The notes: generated from the letters alone by a model not told the origin. A stretch of 64,000 nt of DNA from Clostridia bacterium (GCA_036635835.1 JAVWPP010000002.1:4990-68989), one strand, 5' to 3'; positions 27,179 to 37,087 are shown, numbered from the stretch's first letter. Translations and numbers: made by a program.

Positions 27179-27508
27179 ATGAAAATTGATTTAACAGGAA
27201 TACATGTAGAAGTTACAGAAGGAATGAGAACATTTGTAAATCAAAAGGTTAACAAATTAGCTAAATTCTTTCCAGAAGATACAATAGCTCACGTTACTGT
27301 CGCAACCGAGAACGACAAAAAACATGTAGATATTCGTATAGAAGCAAAAGGACATACATTCTTAGCAGAAGAAACTACTGAGGATATGTACGCTGCAATT
27401 GATACTCTTACTACTAAAATCGAAGGACAAGCAAGAAGAGAAAAAGACAAAAATGAGAATAAACGTTATGAATCAGTCTCTATTCAAGTAGAAACTGAAG
27501 AAGAATAA
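27179..27508 (+). CDS. hpf: ribosome hibernation factor (short HPF/RaiA/YfiA family)
   Basis: 109 aa with MKIDLTGIHVEVTEGMR and a sigma54-modulation/S30EA-like fold pattern. Confidence 0.7.
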   Translation: MKIDLTGIHVEVTEGMRTFVNQKVNKLAKFFPEDTIAHVTVATENDKKHVDIRIEAKGHTFLAEETTEDMYAAIDTLTTKIEGQARREKDKNENKRYESVSIQVETEEE

Positions 27509-27658: not shown

Positions 27659-27688
27659 TTGACATTCTTATGTTAATTGTTGTATACT
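27659..27688 (+). promoter_or_regulatory. promoter candidate for the sortase gene
   Basis: TTGACA, 18-nt spacer, TATACT, 25 nt upstream of the start. Confidence 0.5.
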
Positions 27689-27712: not shown

Positions 27713-28399
27713 ATGAATATAAATAAAAAAAATATAAGTATAATTGTAGCAGTAGTTGTTGTTATAATTATTGCAGTATTAGGATTTAATATAACTAAGG
27801 ATATTGTAACAAATAGCAATAAAAAAACATCTACAGAGTTAACAAAAAAGCTTGAAACATTAAATAAAAAATATCCAGAAGCAAAAGCCTGGTTAAAAGT
27901 AAATAATACAACTATAAATATGCCTGTATTTCAATCTAACGATAATAATAAATATTTAAGATTAAATAGAGATGGAAAAGAAGCTAAATGGGGCGAAGCT
28001 TATTTAGATTACAGAGTAGATTTAAAAAAAATAAACGATAAAAGTAATATTATAATATATGGACATAATACTGAACAAGACACGTTGTTTACGCCATTAT
28101 TAAAATATAAAGACGAAGAATTTTTCAAAAAAAATAAAACAATTCAATTAGCAATTAAAGATAAGGAATATAAATTTGAAATTATATCTGCTTTTGTTAC
28201 AGATACTAGTTATTTTTATATAGATACTGAGTTTAAAAACGTAGAAGAATATGATAATTTTACAAATGAAATAAAAAGTAAAAGCATATACGATACAGGA
28301 GTTAAATTAAAGAGTAACGATACAATATTAACGTTATCTACTTGTGAGTACTCTATAGAAAATGGTAGATTCGTAGTGGTAGCTAGATTAGTTAAATAA
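27713..28399 (+). CDS. srtB: class B sortase
   Basis: N-terminal TM anchor, His motif IIIYGHN, Cys motif TLSTCEY, Arg in RFVVVARL. Confidence 0.75.
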   Translation: MNINKKNISIIVAVVVVIIIAVLGFNITKDIVTNSNKKTSTELTKKLETLNKKYPEAKAWLKVNNTTINMPVFQSNDNNKYLRLNRDGKEAKWGEAYLDYRVDLKKINDKSNIIIYGHNTEQDTLFTPLLKYKDEEFFKKNKTIQLAIKDKEYKFEIISAFVTDTSYFYIDTEFKNVEEYDNFTNEIKSKSIYDTGVKLKSNDTILTLSTCEYSIENGRFVVVARLVK

Positions 28400-28405
28400 A
28401 GAAAA

Positions 28406-28435
28406 GAGCAGTAAATAAAAATTACTGCTCTTTTT
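28406..28435. terminator. bidirectional terminator between srtB and the SASP gene
   Basis: gagcagtaa/ttactgctc hairpin flanked by T-runs on both strands. Confidence 0.55.
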
Positions 28436-28516
28436 AGTTATACTACTTGAATTATATACTATTAATTAAATATAAACATAAATAATAGTAAGACAAAATA
28501 ATTCATAAAATAGAAA

Positions 28517-28720
28517 CTAGTTTTTTCCTGACATTTGGTTTTCAGCTTGCATTATTAATTTCTTAACCATTGCACCACCGATAGAACCAGCTTGTTTAGA
28601 AGTTAAGTCACCGTTGTATCCTTGTTTTAAGTTAACACCGATTTCGTTAGCAACTTCATATTTGAATTTGTTTAAAGCTTCTTTAGCTTCTGGAACTGCT
28701 TTTTGATTTGAACTTGGCAT
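28517..28720 (-). CDS. ssp: alpha/beta-type small acid-soluble spore protein
   Basis: SASP signature segments KYEVANEIGVNL and GSIGGAMVKKLI. RBS aaaggagg. A loose sigma-G-like promoter element lies upstream. Confidence 0.85.
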   Translation of the reverse strand: MPSSNQKAVPEAKEALNKFKYEVANEIGVNLKQGYNGDLTSKQAGSIGGAMVKKLIMQAENQMSGKN

Positions 28721-28919
28721 AATTTGTTCACCTCCTTTTTAACATTAAGTAAAAACTAAATCTTTACTTAGTCATAATTTGTGCAGTAAAAATGAAATAA
28801 TACATTTTAAATCGTTTTTTTCGAAAAAAATTGTGACAGAAAAATTTTTAATATGTCAAACTCATTGCATTTTTATGTAAAGTGTGATAAAATATAAGGG
28901 TAGATTACGGAGGTTAAAT

Positions 28920-30098
28920 ATGAAAAAAATAATATCAATTAGTTTAATAATAATGATATTAGCAATAAATACACAAGTATTTGCAGCATCAATACCTATA
29001 GTTAATATAGGTGGACCCAATAGAGCTGAAGTACAAGTAGGTGGATCAGTAAGTTATACTGTTGCATTTTACGGTGCTAATTCAATTAATTTAAAAAGTT
29101 CAGATATAGGAATCGCGGGTTCTGGTGTAACAGCAGCAAAGACGGTTTCAGGATCTGGTAATACAAGGACAGTTACACTTAGTAATATACAAGGTGAAAT
29201 AGGTAAAGTTGTAAGTATAGCTATTAGATCAGGAGTAGCAACTAACGCATCTGGAAGTTCAGTGCAAACACCTAATTCTATTGGCTTTGTAATAAAACAA
29301 GGTCAATATGATAATGTAAAGCCTTCTATTACAGTAACAGGCCCTTCTAAAAATAATGTAGATTTAGGAGCTTCAGTTGTATATAACGTAAATTATTCAG
29401 ATAAAAGTGGTATAAAGAATATTTCTTTAAATAGTTCAAGTATAGCTTTATTTGGATTTACAGCAAATGTGTCAATTAGCGGAACTGGAACTTCAAGAAG
29501 AATAACATTAAATAACGTTCAAGGCGCAGAAGGTGGCAATAAATATATAAGTATTAAAAGCGGAACAGCAGCGGATATGGTTGGAAATTTAGCTTATGGT
29601 GTAGAAAGAACAACAAAATTTTGTATAAATGCAAAACCAGTTGAAACACCTAGTAATCAAGAAATAAAACCAGTAGAGAATAAGCAAACAGACGTAAACA
29701 AGCCAACTATTAATATTTCTGCACCAAGTGCAACTTCAATTTTAGCAGGTGAAACAATAAGATATGTACTTACATACAATGATGATCAAGGATTACAAAA
29801 TATATCGTTAAAAATTGATGATGTAAAATTAATAGGGTTTACAGCGGATATAACAATAGAAAATGATGAAAATAAAAGAGTGATTATATTATCAAATGTA
29901 CAAGGAGACTTAGAAACTGAAAAATACATATCAATCAATTCGGAAACTGCAGTAGACCTTAAAGGTAACAAAGCAGAAGCTGTAAATAAAACTATTCCAT
30001 TTAAAATAGAAAAAAAAGCAGAAATAAATGATAAAAAATATAATGATGGTAGACCAAATGATTGGATAGAAAATCCAAACACGGGAAAAAACATATAA
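28920..30098 (+). CDS. secreted surface protein with three tandem repeats of about 95 aa, C-terminal NPNTG
   Basis: Signal peptide MKKIISISLIIMILAINTQVFA. Repeats share GFTA[ND].SI.G.G..R.I.L.N[IV]QG. The protein ends ...ENPNTGKNI followed by a stop. Confidence 0.7.
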   Translation: MKKIISISLIIMILAINTQVFAASIPIVNIGGPNRAEVQVGGSVSYTVAFYGANSINLKSSDIGIAGSGVTAAKTVSGSGNTRTVTLSNIQGEIGKVVSIAIRSGVATNASGSSVQTPNSIGFVIKQGQYDNVKPSITVTGPSKNNVDLGASVVYNVNYSDKSGIKNISLNSSSIALFGFTANVSISGTGTSRRITLNNVQGAEGGNKYISIKSGTAADMVGNLAYGVERTTKFCINAKPVETPSNQEIKPVENKQTDVNKPTINISAPSATSILAGETIRYVLTYNDDQGLQNISLKIDDVKLIGFTADITIENDENKRVIILSNVQGDLETEKYISINSETAVDLKGNKAEAVNKTIPFKIEKKAEINDKKYNDGRPNDWIENPNTGKNI

Positions 30099-30104
30099 AA
30101 AAAG

Positions 30105-30133
30105 CACGTAATATAAAAGTTACGTGTTTTTTT
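30105..30133. terminator. bidirectional terminator
   Basis: cacgtaa/ttacgtg hairpin then T7. There is also a T-run on the other strand. Confidence 0.55.
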
Positions 30134-30147
30134 ATTCCTAACTGAAT

Positions 30148-30369
30148 TTATCCTTTAGGAGGAGTTGGATCATTTCCATAACTATCTTTGTCACGGAATT
30201 TTCCGTTTGCTGCATGTATAAAGACTTCAGATTTTTGGTTTATTGCGATCCTTCTTGCTATAACAATAGCTTCTTGTTGTGTATCTACATTTCTTGTAGC
30301 TTTAGAATTTCCTTCACCTCTAACTGACCAACCTCCGTTATTACGTTTTACAACATGTTGATTTGGCAT
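30148..30369 (-). CDS. DUF2188-family small protein
   Basis: MPNQHVVKRNNGGWSVRGEGNSKATRNVDTQQEAI...KDSYGNDPTPPKG. Start chosen at the MPNQ ATG after agaggtga. Confidence 0.6.
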   Translation of the reverse strand: MPNQHVVKRNNGGWSVRGEGNSKATRNVDTQQEAIVIARRIAINQKSEVFIHAANGKFRDKDSYGNDPTPPKG

Positions 30370-30713
30370 GAATATCACCTCTTTTTCTAAAATTATTATA
30401 TCAAGAAAAATTAACATGTACAATACATTATTGATAAAAAATGCAAATAGTTCAATCTTGTATACTTTTCATCATATTTACATCTTAAAGTGTTATCTAA
30501 TATAAAAAATCTCCCTATAAATATATAGAAGTAACTTATACTTTTTTCAATAAAAATAATAATACACTTACACATCTACTGTACAAAGTTCGAAATATTT
30601 AGCATATTAGCAGAATTCTTTCAGAAAATAGTGTAAAAAACTACGATTTTTTGTTGATGTATTATGTTAACTGTGATATAATATACACTATTAAAAGTAT
30701 CAAGGAGGTATAT

Positions 30714-32648
30714 ATGAAAAGAAAATTAATTATTATAATTTTAATATTCACAATAACATTTATAAATTTAAATTGTTGTGCGTACATATATGCTGCTCCT
30801 TTAGACAACATACCGCCAACAGTAACTATATATTATGCGGGCAACCAAGCTGTTAAATTAGGGGAAAGCATAGTATATAATATTACGTATTTAGATAATA
30901 CTAAAGTAGAAAGCATAAAATTAAAAAATTCAGATATAAGTTTAAATGGATTTACAGCTAATATAGATATACAAGCAAATCAAAATAAAAGAAAAATAAT
31001 ATTAAGCAACATTCAAGGTGAAATTGGAGTTAATAAATACATAAGTTTAAAACCAGGAACTGCTGTAGATATCTCTGGAAATGTAGCAAAAGGCGTGGAT
31101 AGAAGTGCGTACTTTAGAATTGTAGATTCTAAAGATTCAAAAAATCCAGATATATATTTAAGTGGACCATCAGACAAAACTGTACATATGGGAGAAAGCA
31201 TAACATATACGGCCAAATATTCAGACAATATAGGTATAGAAAAAATAAATTTAACAAGTAAAAATATAATACTAAACGGATTTGAAGCTAATATCAATGT
31301 TTATGGCTCAGGAATGGAGCGAAAAATAAAACTAAGCAATATAAGTGGGGAATATGATCAAGATAAAAGCATAACTATTAGCTCGGGAACGGCTGTAGAT
31401 GCCGCAGGAAATAAGGCTTATGGAATAAGTATGTCTCAAAAATTCTCAATAGTAGAAAAGCAAACAGATTTTAATGGCAAAATAATAAATATACCTGTAG
31501 AAGAATCCATTCTAACTTCTATTGAAGACCAAGAATCGTTTGAATGTACGGATCCTGTAACTTTAGAAATTGATAATAAAGTAAAAAAAGCTGGTATGTG
31601 GTTTGATGTTACTAGAGATAATGTTAAAAATTTTTATGAAAATAATTACATTTCCGAAGGCAAAACTTGCACATACAACATCCAATTTTATAATAATACA
31701 GATGAAAACTTAGAAAACGTACTAATCAGACTATCAATTCCTAAATCTGTGGATGTAGTAGAAGTTACAGCTGGCGGTGAAAAAGTAAGTAAAACTAATC
31801 AATTAACCGTAGTACAATGGAAAGTAGGAAAACTAGAAAAAGGTAAAGGATATACATTAAAAGCAAAAGTAAAATTTTTAGAAGATACAAACTTAAAAAA
31901 GAGTAAAGAGCTAGTTTCAGAATTTTTTTCTAAAGTAGATATGATATCAGATAAACAAATAAATTCCATGTATACAAGGCAAGCGTTTGTTGATCTTTCT
32001 AAAAATAAATCGGCAAAGTCAAAAAAATATTTAAAAATATATACTTTTCCAAGTAAAATAAGCCCTAGCGAAAAAATATCTAAAGTGGATTTTGCTAGAA
32101 TAATAATAGATAGCGGTATAATAAAAAATATTCCTAGTAAAAAAGGATATAAGTCATATAACGATAAAAATAAAATACCGTTTAATCAAAGAAAAGCAGT
32201 TAGTACTATGACTGAAATTGGAATATTTATGCCAGATGAAAAGGGAAATTTAAATGCAGACAAGTTAATAACAAAAGCTGAAATGTATGATATATTGATG
32301 AAAGTTTTAAAATACAAGTATAATGATCTATTAGTAAGTGAAGCAACGCCCTTTATTGTAAATAAAGATATTACAAATAATGAAAATGAAGCATTAGAGT
32401 ATAAAAATTCAGTAATGCAGCTTATTAGAATGAACATAGTAGAAAGATCTAGTATAAATATAAGCGAAACAGCTACTATACAAGATGTATTGCAAGTAGT
32501 TAACTGCGTTACATATAGAGATAACATTGGAAAAATTAAAAATATAAACAATACAAAATTTGCAAAAGAAAACTTAGATCTTATTACTATTGCAACAAAA
32601 AATATTAAATATAAGTATGATAAAGACTTGAAAATGCAAGTAGTTTAA
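30714..32648 (+). CDS. secreted surface protein, two copies of the same repeat domain plus unrelated C-terminal region
   Basis: Start at MKRKLIII after aaggagg. Repeats GFTANIDIQANQNKRKIILSNIQGE and GFEANINVYGSGMERKIKLSNISGE. No sorting signal. Confidence 0.65.
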   Translation: MKRKLIIIILIFTITFINLNCCAYIYAAPLDNIPPTVTIYYAGNQAVKLGESIVYNITYLDNTKVESIKLKNSDISLNGFTANIDIQANQNKRKIILSNIQGEIGVNKYISLKPGTAVDISGNVAKGVDRSAYFRIVDSKDSKNPDIYLSGPSDKTVHMGESITYTAKYSDNIGIEKINLTSKNIILNGFEANINVYGSGMERKIKLSNISGEYDQDKSITISSGTAVDAAGNKAYGISMSQKFSIVEKQTDFNGKIINIPVEESILTSIEDQESFECTDPVTLEIDNKVKKAGMWFDVTRDNVKNFYENNYISEGKTCTYNIQFYNNTDENLENVLIRLSIPKSVDVVEVTAGGEKVSKTNQLTVVQWKVGKLEKGKGYTLKAKVKFLEDTNLKKSKELVSEFFSKVDMISDKQINSMYTRQAFVDLSKNKSAKSKKYLKIYTFPSKISPSEKISKVDFARIIIDSGIIKNIPSKKGYKSYNDKNKIPFNQRKAVSTMTEIGIFMPDEKGNLNADKLITKAEMYDILMKVLKYKYNDLLVSEATPFIVNKDITNNENEALEYKNSVMQLIRMNIVERSSINISETATIQDVLQVVNCVTYRDNIGKIKNINNTKFAKENLDLITIATKNIKYKYDKDLKMQVV

Positions 32649-32806
32649 CGAAAAATAGAGGAAACTCTATTTTTTTTTGTTAAATCATGGTCATAAACGC
32701 AAAGTATATTGAATTTTTATGTAATCTGTGGTATAATGAATGTATAGTTTAATATTTCTATAAACCTTTAAATAAAGATTTAATAAAATAATAGGAGATG
32801 ATAAGT

Positions 32807-35620
32807 ATGAAAATATTTATACAATATTTCAAAGACTATAGAGAATCTTACAAATCATTAAAACCATTGCAAAAATTAGTTCCTATATTAGGAATTGCAC
32901 TGGCTGCATTTTTAGCTAAAGTAAATGTAATTCTTACTTTGGTAGTTTTAGGACTATCATTTGTATATATTACTAACAATGCTACAAACGTAGCTAAGCT
33001 ACAAGAAAGTGAAAACAAAAACGCAGAACAATCTAATCCTTTCAGCATAGCAAAGGCAGTTATATTTTTCGCAATTCTTGCTTGTGTTTCTTATAAGCTT
33101 TGGACTGTTAACAAGGTGATCCTTGGAGTAGTAGTTGTCTTTATGGCATTTTATTATAACAAGAAAATCAAGGGAACAGTTCATTTAAGTAAGAAAAACA
33201 TTTCTTTTGACAAGACTAAAGCATTTTTTACAGAAAAGAAATTCGCAGGTATGTTTAAGTCATCAAAAGAAAACAAAAAAGAAAAGAAAGCAAAAACAGA
33301 CAAGAAAGCAAAAAATGAAATGAAAGATTCTAAATTTCAAAACTTTAAAGTATCAATAGTAGAAAAAGCAAAAATACTAAAACAAAAATTATTAAAAGGA
33401 GGCATTAATATGCGGACTTCAATTAGAAAACACTTAAATTTTAAAAACGTAGTAGTATCTATACTTTTAGCAGCATCCCTTAGCTTGGGTGGAATCTTTG
33501 CATATACACAACTTAGTAAAAAGCCATGTGATTGCAAAGCAAAAGCTCAATATCAGGAAATGCTAAATGAGGCTTATCAAGAATTAGACACAGCATACGA
33601 CGAAATAGACAAGCAAAATGAAAAAATTGAAGAATTAGATGACAAAATAGCTGAAATGGAAAATGAAGACAAAGCAGAAGTAGAAGCAAAAACAGAATCA
33701 GCTCCAATAGAAGCTATTACAACATCACCAATAACAGAGTACAATCCTAATAATAATAACAATAATTCAAGTTCGTCATTAGGCTCTTATAATAATGATA
33801 CAAGTAGTATTAATAAAGACAGTAGTTCAAATGGCGGAAATGACAATTCATCAACAGTTGATACACCAAGTTCTTCAGTAGATAATCAAGCACCACAAGT
33901 TAAACTTGTAGGTAACTCACAAGTCGAAGCAGGTAAAGAATACACACTACAAGTTATAATCGAAGACGAAAATCTTAAAGAAGTTGGCCAAGTAAAAGAT
34001 TATTTCAAAGGTTTAGAAAATGCAAAAATAGGAGAACCAACACAAATATCAAGCTCAAATTACAAGTTCCCTATAACATTTGAAAAAGCCGGCGAATACA
34101 AGGTTTATATTTCTGAAGGATTAGCTAAAGATACAGTAAATTTAACATCAGGTAAGAGCAACGAGCTAACAATTTCAGTAACAGAAGCTAAGCCAAACCC
34201 AGAAGATAAACCAGAAGTAGCAACAGATACTAATAAACCAGTTGTAACAGTAGAAACAAGTAACTTAAATCTTAAAACAGGCGAAAAAGTATCAATTACT
34301 CTTAAAGCAACTGATGACAACAAAATCGACAAATTCTATATTGGAGCTTCATTGATTAACGGCACAACAATAGGACAATTTGAAGTGGATTCAATTTCAG
34401 AAAATGACGATTCAAGAGTTGTTAATTTTATCGCTAAAAAAGCAGGAACTTACAATGTATCATTTAGTGAAGGAATCGCAGTTGACGAAGCAGGAAATAA
34501 ATCTGATGCACCTAACGCTATTACTTTCGTAGTAACAGACAAAGATAATTCAGAAGATAAACCTGTAGAGCCAGGACAACCAGTTGAACCAGTAGAACCT
34601 TCAAAAGATACAGAGAAGCCACAGCTTTCTTACGAGTCAAGTAATGCTACTATTTACGAAAATTTTACTATTACTTTAAATGCTAAAGACAATGTTGAGA
34701 TTAAATCATTTGATTTCAGTGAATCAGATATTAATTTACCAGAAGGATGCAAATATTTAAATCACAGTTTTAAAGATCAATCTACAGTAGAAATACTAAT
34801 TTTAGTGGACAGCCTTGTAGATGATTCAGGTAATTTAAATTTCAGTATTAACGAAGCGGTTGTTACAGACACTTCAGGTAATAAATCAGACCAATTGAAT
34901 ATTACTGTTCCTGTTACAGGAGTAGATAATACAGAGAAGCCAGAAGTATTACCAGAAGAACCAGAACAAAGTGAAGAATTAGCTATAACATTAAGCGCAG
35001 ACAGACAATCAGTAACATCAGGTGAAAGCTTTTACGTTATAGGAACTCCTAATACAACTCTTAACGGATATACTTTAAATAGAGCGAATATACAAGTACC
35101 GGAAGGTATTGAGATAGGTTCAATCGAACAAAGTACCGATAAAATTGTAATAGAGGTTAAAACTTCTACAAATGTTACAGGTTCAGTTAATATAACAATC
35201 GATAATGCAGTTAATACAGTTACAGTAGATGTTACACCAGTTGAAACTATCACTGAAAAACCGGTTACACCAGAAGCCCCAGCAGAAGAACCTATTATAG
35301 AAGAAGTAGTACCTAGTATTACAAGTCCTTCTATAGAGGAAAATAATGTTGAGGTGAAAGAAGAAACAGTTGTACCAGAAGCCCCAGTAGACAATATAGA
35401 AGAGGACGTTAAAGAAGAGGTTTCAAACGGTTCTGAAGAAGTAATTCAAAATGAAACAACTAACCAAGATGATTGGGAAGAAGTTAATATTGATGAAACA
35501 GTAGAACCAGTACAACCAGTAGAACCAGTACAACCAGTAGAATCAACACAACCAGTAGAAAATCAACAAGAAACTTTAGTTTCAGATGAAATTCCAGTCT
35601 TTGAATCAGCAGATAGCTAA
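32807..35620 (+). CDS. membrane-anchored giant surface protein (about 937 aa)
   Basis: Four predicted N-terminal TM helices, a coiled coil, an Asn/Ser-rich linker, repeated Ig-like segments and Pro-rich VEPVQPVEPVQPVESTQPV repeats. Confidence 0.65.
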   Translation: MKIFIQYFKDYRESYKSLKPLQKLVPILGIALAAFLAKVNVILTLVVLGLSFVYITNNATNVAKLQESENKNAEQSNPFSIAKAVIFFAILACVSYKLWTVNKVILGVVVVFMAFYYNKKIKGTVHLSKKNISFDKTKAFFTEKKFAGMFKSSKENKKEKKAKTDKKAKNEMKDSKFQNFKVSIVEKAKILKQKLLKGGINMRTSIRKHLNFKNVVVSILLAASLSLGGIFAYTQLSKKPCDCKAKAQYQEMLNEAYQELDTAYDEIDKQNEKIEELDDKIAEMENEDKAEVEAKTESAPIEAITTSPITEYNPNNNNNNSSSSLGSYNNDTSSINKDSSSNGGNDNSSTVDTPSSSVDNQAPQVKLVGNSQVEAGKEYTLQVIIEDENLKEVGQVKDYFKGLENAKIGEPTQISSSNYKFPITFEKAGEYKVYISEGLAKDTVNLTSGKSNELTISVTEAKPNPEDKPEVATDTNKPVVTVETSNLNLKTGEKVSITLKATDDNKIDKFYIGASLINGTTIGQFEVDSISENDDSRVVNFIAKKAGTYNVSFSEGIAVDEAGNKSDAPNAITFVVTDKDNSEDKPVEPGQPVEPVEPSKDTEKPQLSYESSNATIYENFTITLNAKDNVEIKSFDFSESDINLPEGCKYLNHSFKDQSTVEILILVDSLVDDSGNLNFSINEAVVTDTSGNKSDQLNITVPVTGVDNTEKPEVLPEEPEQSEELAITLSADRQSVTSGESFYVIGTPNTTLNGYTLNRANIQVPEGIEIGSIEQSTDKIVIEVKTSTNVTGSVNITIDNAVNTVTVDVTPVETITEKPVTPEAPAEEPIIEEVVPSITSPSIEENNVEVKEETVVPEAPVDNIEEDVKEEVSNGSEEVIQNETTNQDDWEEVNIDETVEPVQPVEPVQPVESTQPVENQQETLVSDEIPVFESADS

Positions 35621-36349: not shown

Positions 36350-36661
36350 ATGAAGTGCAATTATGAAGAAGATAATGAAATCTTAAAAGTTTTACTTACT
36401 CAAGATATAGATACTGGAGAATGTAAAAAAATACGAAATGTAATAGACGGATATATAATTAAATATCAGCCTAAAAAAGTAGTTTTAGATTTATCAAATG
36501 TATCATTTATGGACAGCTCTGGAATAGGGCTAGTAATGGGGAGATATAATTTAGCAAAAATGTTTAACAGTAAGCTAGCCATATGTAATCCAAATAAAAG
36601 AATAAAACAAGTGATTCAGCTTACTAATATAGATAAGTATGTAGAAATAATGGAGGTTTAA
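36350..36661 (+). CDS. anti-sigma-factor antagonist (STAS domain, SpoIIAA/RsbV-like)
   Basis: SNVSFMDSSGIGLVMG with the conserved Ser in DSSG. 103 aa. Confidence 0.75.
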   Translation: MKCNYEEDNEILKVLLTQDIDTGECKKIRNVIDGYIIKYQPKKVVLDLSNVSFMDSSGIGLVMGRYNLAKMFNSKLAICNPNKRIKQVIQLTNIDKYVEIMEV

Positions 36662-37087
36662 ATGGATAAGATACGTATTGAAATTGAAAGTAAATTAACA
36701 AATGTAGCGGTGGTAAGAGTAGCTGTTGCTACGTTTGTTGCAAATTACAATGTAAAATTAGATGAACTAGTAGATATTAAAACAGCAGTATCAGAAGCAG
36801 TTACAAATAGTATAGTGCATGGATACGAAGAAAAAAAAGGTACAATTGTTGTAGAATGTATATATTCTAAAGGTATTTTTGTAGTGAAAGTTATAGATAA
36901 GGGCATTGGAATTGGAGATATAAGTTTAGCTACAACCCCTGCTTATACAAGTAAACCGGAACTAGAACACGCCGGAATGGGTTTTACCATAATGTCAACT
37001 TTTATGGATGATCTAATTGTAGATTCTAGTGAGCAAGGTGGCACTATAGTAACTATGACGAAAAAAATAGATAATAACAATAAATGA
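36662..37087 (+). CDS. anti-sigma factor serine kinase (SpoIIAB/RsbW-like, HATPase_c)
   Basis: N-box EAVTNSIVHG, G1 DKGIGI, G2 GMGFTIM. The start overlaps the upstream stop (ATGA). Confidence 0.75.
   Translation: MDKIRIEIESKLTNVAVVRVAVATFVANYNVKLDELVDIKTAVSEAVTNSIVHGYEEKKGTIVVECIYSKGIFVVKVIDKGIGIGDISLATTPAYTSKPELEHAGMGFTIMSTFMDDLIVDSSEQGGTIVTMTKKIDNNNK

Follow-up and report, generated by a model that had tools for sequence, protein, structure and literature searches.

Protein A, which is encoded beside a class B sortase gene (srtB) in a Clostridia genome, is probably a dedicated substrate of this sortase, its last 14 residues serving as a minimal sorting signal that lacks a membrane anchor, and the cell wall is the likeliest acceptor. 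Both genes lie in the 64-kb stretch of DNA analyzed here (the window; Table 1). Since the early 1990s, sortase substrates have been defined by a three-part signal of motif, hydrophobic segment and positively charged tail. In the literature searched, coverage of which was incomplete, no description of a natural sorting signal lacking the hydrophobic or transmembrane (TM) segment was found. Our comparative analysis suggests that a sortase may be able to sort a protein without the textbook signal. Substrate-prediction tools and profile models assume this signal and would miss a family that carries the motif only.

Table 1. Features of the srtB–protein A locus (positions in the window)
Feature	Position	Strand	Basis and remarks
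srtB promoter, sigma-A-type (TTGACA-18-TATACT)	27659..27688	+	Predicted; consensus scan, 11/12 matches
Class B sortase gene srtB, 228 aa	27713..28399	+	TIGR03064, Pfam Sortase, structure match
Terminator hairpin separating srtB from the convergent SASP gene	28402..28434		13-bp stem, then T-run
Alpha/beta-type SASP gene	28517..28720	-	PF00269, E 6e-30; outside the system
Tag-gene promoter, extended -10 (TTGCAT-17-TGaTAAAAT)	28865..28893	+	Predicted; read from sequence
Protein A gene, 392 aa	28920..30098	+	Signal peptide, three Ig-like domains, short linker, tag
Anchor-less sorting tag (putative), P379-N-D-W-I-E-N-P-N-T-G-K-N-I392	30054..30095	+	Alignment and family census
Bidirectional terminator hairpin right after the protein A stop	30105..30126		Sequence; precedes the convergent DUF2188 gene
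DUF2188 gene	30148..30369	-	PF09954, E 2.5e-23; interleaved, lineage-specific
Paralogue B, 644 aa	30714..32648	+	Signal peptide, two Ig-like copies, DUF11/CLIPPER-like domain, C-terminal SLH
Paralogue C, 937 aa	32807..35620	+	N-terminal TM segments, coiled coil, at least two Ig-like copies, acidic C-terminus

The C-terminal ending of protein A

Protein A starts with a Sec signal peptide predicted to be cleaved after Ala22, a residue that is invariant in the alignment of homologues, and continues with three Ig-like domains (residues 26-126, 130-239 and 257-366; domain HMM). Its C-terminus reads ...RPNDWIENPNTGKNI, immediately followed by the stop codon. NPNTG occupies residues 385-389, only three residues (KNI) follow the glycine, and the predicted cleavage site is the Thr388-Gly389 bond. 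Protein A has neither a hydrophobic membrane-spanning segment after NPNTG nor a positively charged C-terminal tail; tail-less homologues mostly have a single K or R after the glycine. No match to an anchor profile of Pfam or NCBIfam, including the PF00746 / TIGR03063 type, was found. In the AF2 model of protein A (pLDDT 88), three beta-sandwich domains precede a C-terminal region that is disordered, with pLDDT of about 55-60 for residues 371-390 and below 50 at residues 370-373 and 388-392. With signal peptide, folded domains, stalk and disordered tag, the tag proteins have the architecture of a sortase substrate. A lipoprotein or an uncleaved signal anchor was considered as another tether and rejected, as there is no lipobox and Ala22 is invariant.

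The terminator that directly follows the stop codon and the convergent DUF2188 gene leave no coding space for a TM segment or a charged tail, and none of the downstream reading frames encodes a hydrophobic tail. A preliminary description of this DNA had noted that the protein ends exactly in NPNTGKNI without hydrophobic segment or tail, and stop codon and hairpin confirm this. A frameshift restoring a downstream TM segment, named there as a result that would speak against its reading, was looked for and none was found. Other NPxTG proteins or canonical substrates are absent from the 64-kb window, the remaining matches being antisense ORFs.

To assess conservation of this ending, a family census was carried out on 178 representatives (clusters at 90% identity). 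A tail-less ending, DW-xx-NPxTG plus one to three residues of which the first is mostly K or R, was present in 144 of them. All 144 have the DW pair; the pentapeptide is NPNTG in 127, NPKTG in 11, NPDTG in 4, and NPYTG and NPQTG in one each. None of these 144 ends on the glycine itself or has a TM segment after it. Across 21 divergent homologues, D381, W382, N385, P386, T388 and G389 show no variation and P379 almost none, while identity over the whole protein is only about 30-50%. The resulting consensus of the minimal signal is P-x-D-W-[IV]-x-N-P-x-T-G-[KR/I/V]-x0-2. An invariant ending in 144 of 178 representatives points to strong selection on the C-terminus. In a genome scan the same ending was found in 47 species-level genomes, a count that leaves out 30 unconfirmed pattern matches, a number comparable to that expected from six-frame chance (rough estimate).

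The segment preceding the tag varies. An N/P/T-rich low-complexity stalk reaches up to about 100 aa at two loci (L072 and L078) and is very short, about 8 aa, in valS-type tag proteins. Many family members have a very short linker from the last Ig-like domain to the tag. Homologues with the same passenger carry EPNTG with a TM segment and KK, an SLH domain or a dockerin in place of the tag, hence the tag appears to fill the anchor slot of these proteins.

Of the explanations offered in the preliminary description, a truncated substrate is contradicted by an anchor-less end that is conserved throughout the census (144 representatives) and the genome scan (47 species). Its alternative, an unusual C-terminal recognition tag, gains support from the comparative data, in which the tag gene shares operons with an SrtB clade of its own (see below). 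For its third option, a pilin-like polymerization signal, the data speak clearly neither for nor against. In the alignment of orthologues that it had proposed as a check, the NPNTG-type motif is conserved as NPxTG and an anchor is absent.

Pairing of the tag gene with one sortase clade

As judged from profile and structure searches, srtB encodes a genuine class B sortase, predicted to act as transpeptidase for NPxT[GN]. The protein scores 157.8 bits against TIGR03064, above the curated cutoff of 153.75, and matches PF04203 (Pfam Sortase) with E 2.4e-13. A hydrophobic stretch visible in the translation marks an N-terminal membrane anchor at residues ~8-25. The intact His, Cys and Arg motifs reported earlier were borne out: His118 (YGHN), Cys211 (LSTC) and Arg219 (GRFVV) are invariant in alignments with 13-14 homologues. 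Among solved structures, C. difficile SrtB (5gyj/4ux7) matches best (E 1e-41), and the enzyme also aligns to the Isd-type SrtB structures of S. aureus and B. anthracis (E 1e-33 to 1e-36).

In 24 of the 47 species-representative genomes, the tag gene is followed on the same strand by an orthologous srtB, whose start lies 17-126 bp further downstream, and these enzymes score 183-223 bits against that of the window. At such linked loci the stop codon of the tag gene is followed by the srtB ribosome-binding region. The SASP gene is absent between the two genes in 25 operon-type loci, where the pair is adjacent. The reverse search led to the same association. Where upstream DNA is available, a tail-less tag gene ends 3-120 bp before every SrtB that shares 42% or more identity with the window enzyme, with the exception of one XerD-SrtB subclade. 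SrtBs of 41% identity or less belong to loci in which the only NPxT[GN] proteins found carry the full signal of TM segment and charged tail; this was seen in about 12 of about 40 such loci, the rest being mostly short contigs. The tag-linked SrtBs, the window enzyme included, group as a single clade in a rough NJ tree, and a search of up to 7 kb around its members revealed no canonical substrate. Per locus there is a single tag gene with a single class B sortase, and this pair has been retained in four or more genomic contexts.

The window itself has the order of the two genes swapped, and they form separate transcription units. In 23 of the 47 species, the 10 kb around the tag gene contain no sortase. 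Co-occurrence of unlinked tag and SrtB at the genome level was seen in one lineage, in which the tag gene is adjacent to valS: the tag protein P0254 and a stand-alone SrtB, P0157, come from the same three samples, and their GenBank accessions (MBO5478023 and MBO5477113) are 910 apart.

Upstream of the orthologues of the tag gene, a TTGAC[AT]/TGnTAYAAT promoter architecture is conserved, and an extended -10 occurs in 35 of 48 tag loci versus 28% of controls. The strength of this predicted promoter suggests that protein A may be a very abundant structural protein. Neighboring SASP, SpoIIM and SpoIIAA/AB-like genes prompted the idea of a role in the sporulation compartment, where secretion into a closed forespore space would remove the need for an anchor. 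The promoter patterns speak against it, since SigE, sigK and sigG patterns were found in none of the 48 upstream regions and sigF in two, as against the 35 sigA-type extended -10 promoters.

Paralogues and context of the locus

The repeated Ig-like domain measures about 110 aa. Protein A has three copies and paralogue B two (E 6e-36 and 3e-39; domain HMM), copy numbers that agree with the preliminary description. Paralogue C, thought to have none, contains at least two divergent copies (residues 476-582, E 2e-9, and 603-700, E 4e-6). When the C-terminal third of B was scanned alone, SLH (PF00395) scored 22.8 bits against a cutoff of 20.8; a single SLH repeat was detected where three are usual, and the homologue P0102 of B reaches 36.5 bits. 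The SLH domain in B and the N-terminal TM segments in C argue that neither is a sortase substrate, so the earlier view of both as fellow substrates with defective signals is not upheld. Partners similar to B or C are absent from most tag loci; at L007 a C-like protein of 1032 aa follows the tag gene. The start codons of B and C given in Table 1 are the most likely ones and match the gene calls.

That a SASP and a DUF2188 gene are interleaved on the opposite strand was confirmed by their Pfam matches. The term island does not fit: as far as sequence comparison can tell, the locus is core and syntenic and no mobile element. Its GC content (0.24-0.33) is like that of the flanks and the rest of the window, a megablast search against plasmids gave no match, and the order polC-hpf-[tag/srtB]-...-STAS-kinase-rluD is common to related species.

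Possible processing and known systems

From these patterns we infer how the tag might be processed. Membrane-anchored SrtB would bind the extended motif and Cys211 would attack the Thr388-Gly389 bond, releasing a leaving group of two to four residues. An amine would then resolve the acyl-enzyme; a peptidoglycan precursor is the likeliest acceptor, which would anchor protein A covalently to the wall. Capture without hydrophobic segment and charged tail would have to rely on contacts of the acidic residue and Trp of the DW pair, on the cation after the glycine and on co-expression, in most lineages from one operon. The protein A studied by Schneewind and colleagues in 1992-93 was reportedly secreted uncleaved when the hydrophobic domain or the charged tail was missing, so an anchor-less signal is expected to be inefficient unless compensated. 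Living S. aureus takes up soluble LPETG-amide peptides via SrtA; the C-terminal glycine was amidated in these peptides, as a free carboxylate may inhibit SrtA, and cationic residues after the motif increased incorporation 20-fold (PMC4723074). Likewise, B. anthracis SrtB requires residues on both sides of NPKTG (PMC11987632). These results fit the rules of the tag, in which the glycine is followed by at least one residue, most often K or R, and the motif is preceded by conserved ones. More tentatively, and with considerable doubt, we consider that membrane retention may have been replaced by a high-affinity extended motif, [DE]-W-[IV]-x-N-P-x-T-G-[KR], through which protein A, as the single, very highly expressed Ig-like protein of its lineage, would be captured in soluble form and built covalently into the envelope, possibly as a linked surface layer instead of individually anchored molecules; the tag might then represent a separate natural mode of sorting.

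It is rather unlikely that the tag is sorted to a protein amine, such that protein A would be polymerized head-to-tail or onto a lysine (as pilus or sheet) or ligated to C or B. Class B-type sortases can be pilin polymerases: the window SrtB matches 3psq, a relative of S. pyogenes Spy0129 (E 2e-17) that presumably acts in this way. The very short linker between Ig-like domain and tag in many members is pilin-like, one lysine, K335, is nearly invariant, differently anchored paralogues adjoin protein A in the window and at L007, and promoter strength hints at an abundant structural protein. However, there is a single substrate gene per genome, and neither a minor or basal pilin nor a class C sortase occurs in any locus. 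The position of K335 recurs in every repeat, making a structural role probable, and a fold search with protein A gave generic tandem-Ig matches with no pilin among the 50 listed. Furthermore, most loci lack partners for ligation, and the ~100-aa stalks at L072 and L078 are typical of wall-spanning regions. The ~8-aa stalk of the valS-type proteins fits wall spanning poorly.

A sortase need not be involved if the C-terminus were a short motif for binding or maturation, such as non-covalent attachment to a wall polymer or recognition by another protease, and the proximity of srtB a matter of regulation or chance. Cleavage is known as a prediction, 23 of the 47 tag genes are not adjacent to a sortase, and textbook substrates require membrane retention (PMC3297441). 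Yet the invariant core is the exact class B pentapeptide NPxTG, the pair is maintained across its several genomic contexts, clade and tag are found exclusively together whichever of the two is searched for, and, with canonical substrates missing around the sortases of the clade, these would have no candidate substrate without protein A; we regard this explanation as improbable. Negligible in our view is an artefact or pseudogene, through assembly error, frameshift or a recent nonsense mutation, as which the missing anchor may initially appear given the sister group of the same family with EPNTG, TM segment and KK. Frameshift or truncation of protein A is ruled out by the downstream terminator and by the identical gene in at least six independent assemblies; the same ending recurs throughout the census and the genome scan. 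What comes next is the terminator in the window and the srtB ribosome-binding region at other loci, with no hydrophobic tail in any downstream frame.

If the tag is processed by SrtB as proposed, membrane retention would be dispensable given extended recognition. Protein A would then stand as the probable main surface protein of a little-known gut Clostridia group, and the natural SrtB/tag pair, with its short extended recognition sequence, would be a candidate orthogonal tool for protein ligation. All tag-bearing organisms are uncultured MAGs and the system is known from sequence alone; the proposal is testable with synthetic peptides and recombinant enzyme, so that culturing is unnecessary.

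Several known systems resemble parts of this arrangement. Sortase-assembled pilin clusters differ in having a class C or polymerase sortase and several pilin genes, neither of which occurs in tag loci. Isd-type SrtB/IsdC systems (S. aureus NPQTN, B. anthracis NPKTG) share the class B sortase, one or a few dedicated substrates nearby and an Asn-Pro-x-Thr pentapeptide with needed flanking residues (PMC11987632). In contrast to protein A, Isd substrates have the full tripartite signal, e.g. DNPKTGD, TM segment and K/R in the recovered loci, and their passengers are NEAT heme-binding domains; here the passenger is Ig-like, an invariant DW is added and iron-uptake genes are absent. The known substrates of C. 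difficile SrtB have canonical hydrophobic and charged tails. This enzyme, the closest solved homologue and likewise a single clostridial housekeeping class B sortase, prefers (S/P)PxTG / NVQTG, NPKTG being a poorer substrate (PMC5118464). P0032 (...LDGEPNTGVESLPVLPIMG...ITKKIYG) is an example of the canonically anchored sister proteins, with the same Ig-like passenger domains (E 6e-99, domain HMM) and a sortase gene about 1 kb away. It differs in its complete tripartite signal, in EPNTG instead of NPNTG, in lacking DW and in its sortase, which is 33% identical to the window SrtB and falls outside the tag-linked clade. Synthetic sortagging with LPETG-X or LPETG-amide also uses a motif and few residues without an anchor, processed on living cells, and follows the rules of the natural tag, a free glycine carboxylate being thought inhibitory and C-terminal cations helpful (PMC4723074). 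It is, however, man-made, inefficient (high micromolar to millimolar) and based on class A enzymes, whereas the tag described here is natural, encoded in the genome and fixed in evolution. Asparaginyl-endopeptidase ligases such as butelase (N-HV) act on soluble substrates with a short C-terminal tag and a leaving group of two to three residues; the enzyme fold, the organism and the cellular setting all being unrelated, this likeness is an analogy only.

Ending of protein A and its conservation

Protein A has 392 aa, a Sec signal peptide and three Ig-like copies of the repeated domain (aa 26-126, 130-239 and 257-366, about 110 aa each), the number given in the preliminary description. In an AF2 model (pLDDT 88) the protein folds into three beta-sandwich domains with a disordered C-terminus, and structural comparison gives generic tandem-Ig matches, e.g. 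filamin and titin. As had been described, the protein ends with ...G-R-P-N-D-W-I-E-N-P-N-T-G-K-N-I-stop and lacks a hydrophobic tail. A hairpin terminator, common to the convergent DUF2188 gene, lies directly 3' of the stop codon, and no reading frame supplies such a tail, which disposes of a frameshift restoring a downstream anchor.

A database search returned 222 homologues of protein A from many metagenomes, overwhelmingly with the same ending among the matches listed. In 178 cluster representatives, pooled from two homologue searches, 144 carried this tail-less tag, 20 a complete signal (...LDxEPNTGVE-hydrophobic-KKIYG), and 14 were fragments or had other anchors (SLH, type I dockerin). 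An ending conserved to this extent rules out damage or truncation as its origin. All 144 tail-less members have an NPxTG pentapeptide (NPNTG 127, NPKTG 11, NPDTG 4, NPYTG 1, NPQTG 1) preceded by DW and followed by one to three residues, never none and never more (R 64, K 31, KY 12, I 8, KIR 6, plus others). N385, P386, T388 and G389 are invariant in a 21-member alignment with an identity of only about 33-52 %, as are D381 and W382, with P379 nearly so; what precedes the tag in these sequences is typically an N/P-rich stalk of low complexity. The preliminary description had made its reading depend on conservation of NPNTG in orthologues, and the motif is conserved there as NPxTG. In two metagenomic variants D-W is replaced by E-I or E-V (EEIVPNPNTGKIL, DEVIPNPNTGKEF; loci L072:4718-5434 and L078:9183-9962). 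In each, a single Ig domain precedes an N/T-rich stalk some 100 aa long, and a SrtB of the tag-linked clade is encoded directly 3' of the gene.

The paralogues fared differently. Protein B does hold two domain copies. Protein C, credited with none, contains two or more copies, divergent yet significant (E 2e-9 and 4e-6). Neither is a sortase substrate with a defective signal, as had been supposed: B has a C-terminal SLH domain (22.8 bits against a cutoff of 20.8 with the C-terminal third scanned alone; 36.5 bits in its homologue P0102), and the translation of C has N-terminal membrane segments. Across related organisms, one Ig-like passenger domain is found with five attachment devices, namely the tail-less NPxTG tag, a canonical EPNTG+TM+KK signal, SLH, type I dockerin and N-terminal TM segments (homologues P0290-P0294, P0102 and P0032; B and C in the window). 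From their sequences, these passenger proteins can be described as a "choice of anchor" family.

The sortase and its linkage to the tag

The assignment of the window enzyme to class B was borne out by profile (TIGR03064, 157.8 bits, cutoff 153.75) and sequence features, and its His118, Cys211 and Arg219, described as intact, are invariant in alignments. The closest solved structures are SrtB of C. difficile (E 1e-41), followed by those of B. anthracis and S. aureus.

Features of the locus in the window
Feature	Position	Strand
polC	to 27101	+
hpf	27179-27508	+
srtB	27713-28399	+
alpha/beta SASP gene	28517-28720	-
Predicted tag-gene promoter, TTGCAT-17-TGaTAAAAT	28865-28893	
Protein A gene	28920-30098	+
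Hairpin terminator	30105-30126	
DUF2188 gene	30148-30369	-
Protein B gene	30714-32648	+
Protein C gene	32807-35620	+
STAS / anti-sigma-kinase pair	36350-37087	+
Two rluD-like genes	downstream of STAS / anti-sigma-kinase pair	+

The pattern DW[IV]xNP[NK]TG was sought in 185,579 species-representative genomes and confirmed at 47 loci, each in a different MAG, a count that leaves out 30 further, unconfirmed matches. Every host, Clostridium sp. CAG:465 among them, belongs to the uncultured Clostridia or Bacillota. In 24 of the 47, a SrtB gene (product 183-223 bits against the window enzyme) lies downstream on the same strand, starting 17-126 bp away (median 77). At least four kinds of context occur: XerD-tag-SrtB-STAS-kinase-Hsp33-RluD, polC-hpf-tag-SrtB-..., valS-czcD-tag-SrtB, and valS-tag with no sortase nearby.

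The reverse search, an alignment of sortases against metagenomes, yielded 80 loci. Every SrtB that shared 42 % or more identity with the window enzyme and had upstream sequence to inspect was preceded by a tail-less tag gene, whose end lay 3-120 bp away, except for one subclade arranged XerD-SrtB-STAS, which lacks the tag gene. For SrtBs at most 41 % identical, the sole NPxT[GN] proteins found, 3-6 kb off in about 12 of ~40 loci, carry the full signal with its hydrophobic segment and basic tail; the remaining loci are mostly short contigs. A rough NJ tree groups the tag-linked sortases into a single clade next to the classical Isd-type SrtBs and places the sortase adjoining a canonical-anchor sister protein outside both.

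The XerD-SrtB-STAS subclade has no adjacent substrate gene (L070, L071, L073-L075, L142-L158). The tag genes that match it appear to have relocated to a site beside valS, and their natural partner would be this subclade. In the single unlinked lineage examined, the stand-alone SrtB P0157 and the valS-type tag protein P0254, which matches MAG GCA_017626395.1, probably come from one genome, since they share three samples (ERZ28654709, SRR12529169, SRR12529166) and their accessions, MBO5477113 and MBO5478023, are 910 apart.

The window locus (GC of the chromosomal segment ~28 %; host an uncultured Clostridia MAG) recurs identically in GCA_036637655.1, GCA_036639795.1 and several Logan assemblies. 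Its gene order bears out that the SASP and DUF2188 genes are interleaved on the opposite strand; these insertions separate genes that are adjacent in relatives, and the srtB/tag order is inverted relative to 25 operon-type loci. The locus is of the polC-hpf type, altered by a lineage-specific rearrangement: srtB stands ahead of the tag gene, and the two genes no longer share a transcription unit. In most lineages a STAS + HATPase_c_2 pair resembling SpoIIAA/SpoIIAB or RsbV/RsbW lies 3' of srtB, often after a gap of only ~90 bp; in the window, L011, L042-L061 and L142-L158 the next genes are Hsp33 or RluD, with no sigF- or sigB-like gene after the pair.

Expression of the tag genes

Nearly all tag genes are preceded by a near-consensus housekeeping promoter, TTGAC[AT]-17-TGnTAYAAT, and a strong ribosome-binding site. 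Of 48 tag loci, 35 carry the extended -10, which controls have in 28 % of their upstream regions, whereas sporulation patterns were nearly absent (sigE, sigK and sigG 0/48; sigF 2/48). These promoters argue for a vegetative, abundant envelope protein and against secretion into a closed sporulation compartment, where an anchor would be needless. In the promoter spacer, which separates the -35 from the extended -10, distant lineages (the window and tag genes L015-L061) share a conserved block, TTATGTAAA; as this conservation exceeds the needs of a spacer, the block may be an operator or UP-like element.

Proposed mechanism and comparison with known systems

Most likely, tag and enzyme constitute a dedicated SrtB-substrate pair, the sorting signal being reduced to an extended recognition motif and a minimal leaving group. 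SrtB would cut the Thr388-Gly389 bond of protein A, with subsequent transfer to an amine. The acidic-Trp pair, which all tail-less family members have and their canonical-anchor sisters lack, presumably provides extra binding energy that offsets the missing membrane tether, and operon coupling may assist in most lineages. Anchor-less processing is chemically plausible, because published observations mirror the rules of the tag. Soluble LPETG-amide peptides enter the wall of living S. aureus via SrtA, incorporation rises about 20-fold when the motif is followed by cationic residues, and the C-terminal Gly was amidated in view of possible SrtA inhibition by its free carboxylate (PMC4723074); B. 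anthracis SrtB needs residues flanking NPKTG on both sides (PMC11987632). As to the acceptor, some members have long stalks, suggestive of anchoring to the wall; the very short valS-type linkers and the differently anchored window paralogues would also allow polymerisation or ligation to another protein.

No Pfam or NCBIfam model (release of June 2026) matches the tag, and a literature search of partial coverage found no paper linking NPNTG with a sortase or reporting natural anchor-less sortase substrates. The tag/SrtB pair, known here from comparative evidence, would work like the Isd-type or C. difficile-type SrtB and its substrate. A canonical sorting signal has three defining features, among them a hydrophobic segment and a charged tail (PMC3297441); protein A lacks these two and hence should not be classed as an ordinary LPXTG-type anchor.
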